The position numbers and the translations under genes are program-made. Shown one piece after another: positions 8,467 through 36,536 of a stretch of DNA of 64,000 nucleotides. The notes below the pieces were generated by a model. It was not told the DNA's origin and did not search any database. It saw only the letters and a list, made by a program, of their open reading frames with translations. The number at the start of each line of letters is the position of its first letter. The stretch's first letter is position 1. Location of the stretch: NCBI RefSeq assembly GCF_013167455.1, contig NZ_CP038328.1, one strand, 5' to 3'. The DNA comes from Escherichia coli O157:H7. GTDB taxonomy: Bacteria > Pseudomonadota > Gammaproteobacteria > Enterobacterales > Enterobacteriaceae.

Positions 8467-8575
8467 ACGTGCTACGCCTGTCAGGCCTATTCGACTCCTG
8501 CAATGTATTGAATTTGCATAGTTTTGTAGGTCGAATAAGGCGTTCACGCCGCATCCGGCGTGAACAAATTACTCT
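8467..8575. repeat. REP/BIME-type palindromic unit(s) between cho and nadE
   Basis: GC-rich imperfect palindromes of the REP type (gcctgtcaggcctattcgac ... gtaggtcgaataaggcgttcacgccgcatccggcgtgaac). Confidence 0.6.
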
Positions 8576-29119: not shown

Positions 29120-31048
29120 ATGCCTGTTATAACTCTTCCTGATGGCAGTCAACGCCATTACGACCACGCTGTAAGCCCCATGGATGTTGCGCTGGACATT
29201 GGTCCAGGTCTGGCGAAAGCCTGTATCGCAGGGCGCGTTAATGGCGAACTGGTTGATGCTTGCGATCTGATTGAAAACGACGCACAACTGTCGATCATTA
29301 CCGCCAAAGACGAAGAAGGTCTGGAGATCATTCGTCACTCCTGTGCGCACCTGTTAGGGCACGCGATTAAACAACTTTGGCCGCATACCAAAATGGCAAT
29401 CGGCCCGGTTATTGACAACGGTTTTTATTACGACGTTGATCTTGACCGCACGTTAACCCAGGAAGATGTCGAAGCACTCGAGAAGCGGATGCATGAGCTT
29501 GCTGAGAAAAACTACGACGTCATTAAGAAGAAAGTCAGCTGGCACGAAGCGCGTGAAACTTTCGCCAACCGTGGGGAGAGCTACAAAGTCTCCATTCTTG
29601 ACGAAAACATCGCCCATGATGACAAGCCAGGTCTGTACTTCCATGAAGAATATGTCGATATGTGCCGCGGTCCGCACGTACCGAACATGCGTTTCTGCCA
29701 TCATTTCAAACTAATGAAAACGGCAGGGGCTTACTGGCGTGGCGACAGCAACAACAAAATGTTGCAACGTATTTACGGTACGGCGTGGGCAGACAAAAAA
29801 GCGCTTAACGCTTACCTGCAGCGCCTGGAAGAAGCCGCGAAACGCGACCACCGTAAAATCGGTAAACAGCTCGACCTGTACCATATGCAGGAAGAAGCGC
29901 CGGGTATGGTATTCTGGCACAACGACGGCTGGACCATCTTCCGTGAACTGGAAGTGTTTGTTCGTTCTAAACTGAAAGAGTACCAGTATCAGGAAGTTAA
30001 AGGTCCGTTCATGATGGACCGTGTCCTGTGGGAAAAAACCGGTCACTGGGACAACTACAAAGATGCAATGTTCACCACGTCTTCTGAGAACCGTGAATAC
30101 TGCATTAAGCCGATGAACTGCCCGGGTCACGTACAAATTTTCAACCAGGGGCTGAAGTCTTATCGCGATCTGCCGCTGCGTATGGCCGAGTTTGGTAGCT
30201 GCCACCGTAACGAGCCGTCAGGTTCTCTGCATGGCCTGATGCGCGTGCGTGGATTCACCCAGGATGACGCGCATATCTTCTGTACTGAAGAACAAATTCG
30301 CGATGAAGTTAACGGATGTATCCGTTTAGTCTATGATATGTACAGCACTTTTGGCTTCGAGAAGATCGTCGTCAAACTCTCCACTCGTCCTGAAAAGCGT
30401 ATTGGCAGCGACGAAATGTGGGATCGTGCTGAGGCGGACCTGGCGGTTGCGCTGGAAGAAAACAACATCCCGTTTGAATATCAACTGGGTGAAGGCGCTT
30501 TCTACGGTCCGAAAATTGAATTTACCCTGTATGACTGCCTCGATCGTGCATGGCAGTGCGGTACAGTACAGCTGGACTTCTCCTTGCCGTCTCGTCTGAG
30601 CGCCTCCTATGTGGGCGAAGACAACGAGCGTAAGGTACCGGTAATGATTCACCGCGCAATTCTGGGGTCGATGGAACGTTTCATCGGTATCCTGACCGAA
30701 GAATTCGCTGGTTTCTTCCCGACCTGGCTTGCGCCAGTTCAGGTTGTTATCATGAATATTACCGATTCACAGTCTGAATACGTTAACGAATTGACGCAAA
30801 AACTATCAAATGCGGGCATTCGTGTTAAAGCAGACTTGAGAAATGAGAAGATTGGCTTTAAAATCCGCGAGCACACTTTGCGTCGCGTCCCGTATATGCT
30901 GGTCTGTGGTGATAAAGAGGTGGAATCAGGCAAAATTGCCGTTCGCACCCGCCGTGGTAAAGACCTGGGAAGCATGGACGTAAATGAAGTGATCGAGAAG
31001 CTGCAACAAGAGATTCGCAGCCGCAGTCTTAAACAATTGGAGGAATAA
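29120..31048 (+). CDS. thrS: threonyl-tRNA synthetase
   Basis: 642-aa ORF with TGS, editing and class-II catalytic domains. Confidence 0.95.
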
Positions 31049-31594
<546 letters not shown>

Positions 31595-31666
31595 GGCCTT
31601 CAAGTAGCACTGTCTGTGGAGCCTTCGGGCTTCACAGGCTTTGTTCGCCTTTGTTTCGTTTATTAA

Positions 31667-31888
<222 letters not shown>

Positions 31889-31913
31889 GCCGTTAACGTT
31901 TTTAACTTTTTAA

Positions 31914-32297
<384 letters not shown>

Positions 32298-32302
32298 GCC
32301 AG

Positions 32303-32340
32303 TTGAAAGAGGGAGCTAGTCTCCCTCTTTTCGTTTCAAC
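32303..32340 (+). terminator. rho-independent terminator after rplT
   Basis: Hairpin agagggagctagtctccctct within the outer stem gttgaaa/tttcaac, followed by a T-rich run. Confidence 0.6.
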
Positions 32341-32419
32341 GCCATCAAAACATTGACTTTTATCGCCGTAGCCTTTTCAATAAAGGTCTTTTGAAGAGTA
32401 CCAAAAGGTAACGCAAGCA

Positions 32420-32464
32420 ATGAATGCTGCTATTTTCCGCTTCTTTTTTTACTTTAGCACCTGA
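32420..32464 (+). CDS. pheM: pheST operon leader peptide (14 aa, five Phe codons)
   Basis: ATG AAT GCT GCT ATT TTC CGC TTC TTT TTT TAC TTT AGC ACC TGA = [14 protein letters not shown]. Confidence 0.85.
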
Positions 32465-32511
32465 ATCCAGGAGGCTAGCGCGTGAGAAGAGAAACGGAAA
32501 ACAGCGCCTGA

Positions 32512-32538
32512 AAGCCTCCCAGTGGAGGCTTTTTTTGT
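32512..32538 (+). terminator. pheST attenuator terminator
   Basis: Hairpin gcctccc-agt-ggaggc followed by T7, about 50 nt after the leader peptide stop. Confidence 0.65.
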
Positions 32539-32704
32539 ATGCGCGTTTTGAAAAATAAAAAGCCAGTCTATCAGGCGTAATTGTCGCAGCCAGTCTGGAT
32601 ACGGCCAGTGCGGAGAAACCGGAGCGTACTTAAGTACGTGAGGATTTCGAGCACTGCCCGGGACCAAAATGGCAAGTAAAATAGCCTGATGGGATAGGCT
32701 CTAA

Positions 32705-33730
<1,026 letters not shown>

Positions 33731-33741
33731 GGCAGGAATAG

Positions 33742-36132
<2,391 letters not shown>

Positions 36133-36136
36133 ACCT

Positions 36137-36436
36137 ATGGCGCTTACAAAAGCTGAAATGTCAGAATATCTGTTTGATAAGCTTGGGCTTAGCAAGCGGG
36201 ATGCCAAAGAACTGGTTGAACTGTTTTTCGAAGAGATCCGTCGCGCTCTGGAAAACGGCGAACAGGTGAAACTCTCTGGTTTTGGTAACTTCGATCTGCG
36301 TGATAAGAATCAACGCCCGGGACGTAACCCGAAAACGGGCGAGGATATTCCCATTACAGCACGGCGCGTGGTGACCTTCAGACCCGGGCAGAAGTTAAAA
36401 AGCCGGGTCGAAAACGCTTCGCCCAAAGACGAGTAA
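36137..36436 (+). CDS. ihfA: integration host factor alpha subunit
   Basis: 99-aa [34 protein letters not shown]... Confidence 0.95.
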
Positions 36437-36451
36437 TCTGATCTAACTAAA

Positions 36452-36479
36452 AAGGCCGCTCTGCGGCCTTTTTTCTTTT
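36452..36479 (+). terminator. rho-independent terminator after ihfA
   Basis: Hairpin aaggccgc-tctg-cggcctt followed by ttttcttttc. Confidence 0.65.
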
Positions 36480-36536
36480 CACTGTCGAAGAGTCACCGTA
36501 AAATCAACGCCATGACACTTCAGCAGAACGGATACC

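Follow-up and report, generated by a model that had tools for sequence, protein, structure and literature searches.

The phenylalanine-rich leader ahead of pheS-pheT in Escherichia coli O157:H7 is almost certainly the known pheM attenuator

What is the role of a very short, Phe-rich reading frame, followed by a hairpin and a run of Ts, that lies ahead of the genes pheS and pheT in Escherichia coli O157:H7? Since the 1980s it has been known that a synthetase operon can use a Phe-rich leader to monitor how well its own tRNA is charged. We analysed the locus within a 64-kb window, which is the whole stretch of DNA under study and to which all positions refer. An earlier note, made from the letters alone, had read positions 32420-32538 as an attenuation arrangement sensing charged tRNA-Phe. 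Our analysis indicates that the element is, almost certainly, the E. coli pheM leader peptide and transcription attenuator of pheS-pheT, a ribosome-mediated system of the trp type whose output is set by the supply of charged tRNA-Phe. The element is already known and not new, because published work attributes attenuation control to exactly this E. coli sequence (PMC4082710, PMC5371410), and it is captured both by Rfam and by routine genome annotation.

The RefSeq annotation gives the gene order thrS-infC-rpmI-rplT-pheM-pheS-pheT-ihfA. The features between the end of rplT and ihfA are as follows.

32308-32336, + strand: hairpin with a T-rich tail after rplT, read from the sequence (fold -15.8 kcal/mol, z = -2.7)
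32353-32382, + strand: pheST (pheM) promoter, with the -35 element TTGACT at 32353-32358, a 17-nt spacer and the -10 element TTCAAT(A) at 32376-32382
32405-32409, + strand: weak Shine-Dalgarno-like AAGGU, read from the sequence, 10 nt before the pheM ATG
32420-32464, + strand: pheM leader peptide with its TGA, from translation and the RefSeq CDS pheM (WP_001386830.1)
32747-33730, + strand: pheS, phenylalanine--tRNA ligase alpha subunit, from the ORF list and RefSeq
33745-36132, + strand: pheT, phenylalanine--tRNA ligase beta subunit, from the ORF list and RefSeq
36137-36436, + strand: ihfA, after pheT, from the ORF list and RefSeq

Further upstream, the infC CDS at 31052-31594 (mapped from L001) exceeds the longest ATG/GTG/TTG ORF there (31160-31594), and the longer annotated CDS is consistent with AUU, the non-canonical codon at which infC is known to start.

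The identity of the element was examined by comparison with Rfam and RefSeq. The Rfam model RF01859 (Phe_leader) matched 32414-32538 on the + strand with 75 bits against a gathering score of 55 (E = 3e-12). The match spans model positions 1-125 of 125, that is, the full length, and was recovered again in a scan of the whole window, in which four gathering-level Rfam matches were found in total, Phe_leader among them. Furthermore, several E. coli chromosomes in the RefSeq comparison match 32300-32760 with 100% identity, and on this identical DNA RefSeq carries the labels "Phe leader region" and "pheM: pheST operon leader peptide PheM", followed by pheS, pheT and ihfA. Of 5426 complete E. coli genomes, 5425 contain the promoter-plus-leader segment (32350-32540) exactly once at >=95% identity. 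The coordinates first given for the element proved exact, running from the pheM ATG to the final base of the Rfam match. PMC4082710 places the pheST promoter under attenuation control with reference to Fayat 1983, Trudel 1984, Springer 1985 and Mechulam 1987, and in PMC5371410 pheM is presented as a peptide rich in Phe, with alternative stem-loops for termination and readthrough. Compared with the annotated E. coli pheM-pheST attenuator (RF01859; Fayat et al. 1983 and Springer et al. 1985, as cited in PMC4082710), the element in the window is the same one: peptide, promoter position, structures and gene context agree, and the attenuator is without differences. The Rfam match, the RefSeq annotation, the antiterminator described below and the literature thus all bear out the original reading.

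Elsewhere in the window, Rfam placed STnc540 at 36378-36536 (+ strand), where it overlaps the end of ihfA and runs ~100 nt past it. RprA sRNA (61212-61319, - strand) and ES036/CssrF sRNA (8483-8525, - strand) were gathering-level matches.

The leader appears to have a transcription start of its own. PMC4082710 gives "TTCAATA", 368 nt upstream of the pheS ATG, as the native pheST promoter described by Fayat et al. (1983); counting back from 32747 leads to 32379, inside the TTCAATA heptamer at 32376-82. The arrangement TTGAC[A/T]-17 nt-TTCAAT is present in 54 of 78 orthologous loci. A consensus promoter scan reported no promoter at pheM, because its rule demands an A at position 2 of the -10 element. 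Between this promoter and the end of the rplT ORF at 32297 lies the hairpin at 32308-32336, with the stem strands AGAGGGAG (32308-32315) and CTCCCTCT (32321-32328) around the loop CTAGT and with the tail TTTCGTTT. It was not flagged by the terminator scan, and its form suggests that it is likely the terminator of the upstream rpmI-rplT unit. Since it would end the preceding unit, the pheM leader would start a transcription unit of its own. Downstream, the description of the attenuator as lying upstream of pheST holds in that pheS and pheT are the next genes, with the qualification that the pheS ATG (32747) is 210 nt past the T tract.

Translation of 32420-32464 agrees with the 14-codon mini-ORF with five Phe codons reported before. 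The pheM ORF consists of 14 codons and a UGA stop at 32462-64, and its Phe codons are at 32435-37, 32441-49 and 32453-55. Among the 787 ATG mini-ORFs of 8-30 codons in the window, only pheM has <=16 codons and >=5 Phe, and the chance expectation for such a Phe-rich mini-ORF is 0.02 per window (100 block shuffles). The AAGGU at 32405-32409 is a putative ribosome-binding site of pheM, although a weak match.

Downstream of and across this reading frame, we found three structures that compete for the same segments of RNA.

32426-32507, + strand: protector ('1:2' structure), from the MFE structures and also the Rfam consensus structure
32470-32519, + strand: antiterminator ('2:3'), from folding with the leader masked
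32510-32536, + strand: intrinsic terminator ('3:4'), from the terminator scan and folding

The terminator consists of the arms GAAAGCCUCC (32510-32519) and GGAGGCUUUU (32524-32533) around the loop CAGU. The terminator scan reported a stem at 32510-32533 with 10 pairs, of which 5 are G-C, a 4-nt loop and a T-rich tail, and direct reading of the sequence places a T7 tract at 32530-32536. Taken by itself, the hairpin has a folding energy of -14.9 kcal/mol (z = -4.4), and none of 200 shuffles was as stable. Of the strong GC hairpin with a T7 tract that had been described here, the 10-bp hairpin and the T7 tract stand, and the description as G+C-rich applies to the 6-bp core GCCUCC/GGAGGC only; outside this core there are four A-U or G-U pairs, to which the T tract contributes its first Ts.

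In the protector, the Phe-codon strand at 32426-32452 pairs with 32482-32507 to give a helix of ~27 paired positions. The helix encloses a small hairpin (32454-32478), which itself ties up the motif GGAGGCU, and in the predicted fold both strands of the antiterminator are sequestered once the protector is formed. For all 121 nt taken together, the folding energy is -52.2 kcal/mol (z = -6.2; 0/200 shuffles as stable), and the MFE structure is the protector together with the terminator. The thermodynamic optimum of the full-length RNA is thus the terminated form, which implies that readthrough depends on kinetic, co-transcriptional trapping.

The earlier note had called for a folding check for mutually exclusive structures, and an alternative pairing with the left arm of the terminator does exist. 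For this fold the leader was masked as it would be by a ribosome stalled on the Phe codons, and the RNA was cut before the right arm of the terminator. Under these conditions the left arm at 32513-32519 (AGCCUCC) has an alternative partner at 32470-32476 (GGAGGCU), with an extension of 32477-32483 pairing to 32504-32509. Written out in full, GGAGGCUAG-(C)-GCGU (32470-32483) pairs with GCGCCU (32504-32509) and AGCCUCC (32513-32519). The antiterminator reaches -17.0 kcal/mol, which is slightly better than the terminator hairpin, and its stability is only moderately unusual (z = -2.6; 3/200 shuffles as stable). Since the terminator's left arm is engaged in it, and the base of the protector helix as well, neither of the two other structures can form alongside it, so that the three pairings are mutually exclusive. 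With a mask that reached as far as 32471, where a ribosome at the UGA would be expected to extend, the alternative pairing fell to -9.9 kcal/mol. These masking results indicate that the antiterminator can form when a ribosome stalls on the Phe codons, but not when one sits at the stop codon or when the leader is unoccupied. Taken together, the parts that define a leader-peptide attenuator were all found at this locus: a Phe-rich ORF, a terminator, an antiterminator, a protector and Phe-linked downstream genes. None of the results speaks against this reading.

The length of the protector helix bears on a different reading of the locus, namely that the long leader helix serves above all for processing by RNase III and so governs the stability of pheST mRNA, with tRNA-Phe sensing secondary or absent. 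In vitro, RNase III cuts inside the pheM attenuator structure, with cleavage mapped by 5' RACE to the termination structure, and the downstream transcript decays faster in the wild type than in an rnc mutant (PMC5371410). Both observations, together with the extent of pairing in the helix, favour this reading. However, the same study itself treats the cleavage as a layer added to a known attenuator, and a processing site would leave the conserved Phe codons, the terminator and the antiterminator unexplained, and we consider it very unlikely to be the main function. The long helix at 32426-32507 is the RNase III substrate of that publication. RNase III cleavage is a known extra layer on top of pheM attenuation and is consistent with the long double-stranded helix.

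The attenuator reading was examined further in orthologous loci. A scan with the PheS protein, taking one genome per species, yielded 80 Enterobacterales loci with PheS 89-100% identical, covering ~35 genera from Escherichia to Yersinia, Dickeya, Erwinia and Lonsdalea. The leader was found at all 80 pheS loci; 78 leaders are complete, and the other two, truncated where the retrieved sequence stops, match a purpose-built covariance model over its 3' part. The peptide core FRFFFYF is kept in 78/78 full-length leaders, two of them with one substitution (FRFSFYF in one, FRFFFDF in the other). Among the 74 distinct orthologous leaders, terminator, protector and antiterminator were each predicted in every one, with mean energies of -19.6 kcal/mol for the antiterminator and -14.3 kcal/mol for the terminator. 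The 5' arm of the antiterminator starts 4-9 nt, usually 7-9, past the first base of the stop codon in these 74 leaders. The core of the terminator stem is essentially invariant across them, and its loop is variable.

Pair counts depend on the alignment used. A plain MAFFT alignment of the 74 leaders (A1) had the terminator arms off by one column in many rows and was excluded from the counts. The leaders were realigned with a covariance model (R1) built on a gap-free alignment of 12 sequences (A2). A search with the model at E <= 0.01 added 47 weak minus-strand matches at the same sites, which are the reverse complement of the long hairpin and polluted the resulting alignment (A3); the pairs were counted on the model-based alignment A4, which comes from a search at E <= 1e-10. 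In A4 the terminated conformation has 94.3% of its cells paired and nine pairs changed on both sides, and none of 500 shuffles reached the observed covariation score. The antiterminator, to whose structure A4 had not been fitted, has 93.6% of its cells paired, compared with 28-67% when the partners are slid by 1-3 columns. The shuffle control for the antiterminator was not exceeded on four of five measures (for percent paired, 298/500 shuffles were as high). Covariation is weak because the orthologues are closely related and most paired columns are invariant. The comparative support consists mainly of conserved pairing potential and spacing, and not of covariation.

One pair of columns in this alignment showed a pattern of its own. 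At A4 columns 25/101 (window positions 32437/32497), the first Phe codon changes from TTC to TTT, a synonymous change that covaries with a G-to-A change on the opposite strand in 10 sequences. The same protector pair is a C.A mismatch in 39 of 74 sequences, indicating that the protector helix tolerates a defect at these columns.

The conservation data also bear on a simpler explanation, in which the hairpin and T tract form a constitutive terminator or insulator between rpmI-rplT and pheST and the Phe-rich mini-ORF is coincidental, with no regulatory translation. Terminator-like hairpins are common, at 0.9 per 600 nt in shuffled sequence, and the weak Shine-Dalgarno match before pheM would also suit an ORF of no consequence. 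Against this stand the published attenuation control (PMC4082710, PMC5371410) and the low chance expectation for such an ORF. Furthermore, rplT already has a hairpin and T-rich tail of its own upstream of the pheM promoter, and the FRFFFYF core is kept at a fixed distance from the antiterminator arm in all full-length orthologues, across ~35 genera. We regard a constitutive terminator beside a chance ORF as extremely unlikely, and in effect excluded, because of the conservation of the ORF, the fixed spacing and the terminator that rplT has for itself.

Many aminoacyl-tRNA synthetase genes are controlled by a T-box or a protein operator, in other organisms or in neighbouring genes, which lends some plausibility to an untranslated leader that senses directly, either T-box-like through uncharged tRNA-Phe or through a protein operator as in thrS or rpmI-rplT, but this is extremely unlikely, since the sole significant Rfam match in 31000-34000 is Phe_leader and the conserved feature is a run of codons in a fixed frame with a start and a stop, which neither a T-box nor a protein operator needs. 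With the Rfam models, no T-box or other riboswitch family matched at E <= 1 in window positions 31000-34000. Weak Rfam matches to sX9, mir-5444 and Dictyostelium class I RNA (E = 0.2-0.4) were dismissed as chance.

For the pheM attenuator, the pairings suggest the following course of events, in which we infer, or take from the literature, where the ribosome sits, in what kinetic order the RNA folds and how the system responds in vivo to tRNA-Phe charging. Transcription would start from the promoter TTGACT-17 nt-TTCAAT (32353-32382), and a ribosome would translate the 14-codon leader while RNA polymerase makes the next ~70 nt. With ample Phe-tRNA-Phe, the ribosome would reach the UGA at 32462-64, with its footprint over the start of GGAGGCU, a motif whose first base lies 8 nt past that of the stop codon. 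The other possibility is that the ribosome would depart and the protector helix (32426-52 with 32482-507) would re-form. In either case the antiterminator would be blocked, the terminator at 32510-33 with its T7 tract would fold and transcription would stop ~210 nt short of pheS. Under a shortage of charged tRNA-Phe, the ribosome would stall on the Phe codons at 32435-32455 and hold the 5' strand of the protector. It would thereby leave the RNA from 32470 onward free, and 32470-83 could pair with 32504-19 before the right arm of the terminator exists. With the left arm of the terminator sequestered in this way, the polymerase would read through into pheS-pheT.

This scheme places the element among known systems. 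The trpL, hisL, thrL, leuL and ilv leaders have the same four-segment architecture of protector or pause helix, antiterminator and intrinsic terminator, with the regulatory codons in a short ORF. The pheM leader differs from them in its Phe codons and in its target, an aminoacyl-tRNA synthetase, which is unusual among enterobacterial attenuators; moreover, unlike in those leaders, its antiterminator encloses the 3' strand of the protector as a loop. The pheL-pheA system shares the sensing logic, with a Phe-rich leader peptide, a competing terminator and antiterminator and a Phe-tRNA-Phe readout. It differs in that a biosynthetic enzyme and not a synthetase is regulated, in that it lies at another locus, outside the window, and in that the pheL peptide is not the pheM peptide. 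Regulation of pheA by PheL attenuation is described in PMC8262941. In Gram-positive bacteria, T-box leaders of pheS-pheT respond to the same signal, tRNA-Phe charging, with the same output, a terminator or an antiterminator upstream of pheST. T-box RNAs bind uncharged tRNA directly and do not need translation, whereas the pheM leader is without a T-box match.

Compared with other E. coli pheM-pheST loci, the strain in the window has a long allele of the spacer between attenuator and pheS. The 282-nt spacer from the pheM stop codon to pheS holds a strain-variable palindromic repeat of ~144 nt (~32556-32701), an allele shared with 4781 of 5426 complete E. coli genomes, in which the median number of related copies per genome is five; one related copy lies between rlmKL and ycbX. 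The repeat ends in inverted repeats, forms a single long and imperfect hairpin of -60 kcal/mol, and is absent at the pheST leader of E. coli L002 and of Salmonella L004. In its form the repeat resembles ERIC/IRU elements, a lead and not an established membership. Compared with the ERIC1R and ERIC2 primers, it showed only short central matches of 8-10 nt, and a literature search for ERIC together with pheS returned nothing relevant.

PMC4082710 proposes an 'alternate promoter', TCTAAGT, ~45 nt upstream of the pheS ATG. This motif maps to 32700-06, exactly on the right junction of the repeat insertion, where the short allele reads ATTAAGT, and the alternate promoter, if real, may be allele-specific. 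It is conceivable, but very unlikely, that the repeat alters pheST control in a strain-specific manner, by stabilizing or destabilizing the readthrough mRNA or by supplying a promoter (TCTAAGT) that is independent of the attenuator. The synthesis of PheRS would in that case follow tRNA-Phe charging more tightly in some strains than in others, depending on whether they have the insertion.

The value of the present result is that of a positive control: a reader given only the sequence recognised a leader-peptide attenuator with exact coordinates. Because the element is in Rfam and in routine annotation, no open question is made newly testable by its recognition. For the bacterium, its meaning is that when charged tRNA-Phe is low, the attenuator raises the synthesis of phenylalanyl-tRNA synthetase, a regulatory response that rests on the published work.
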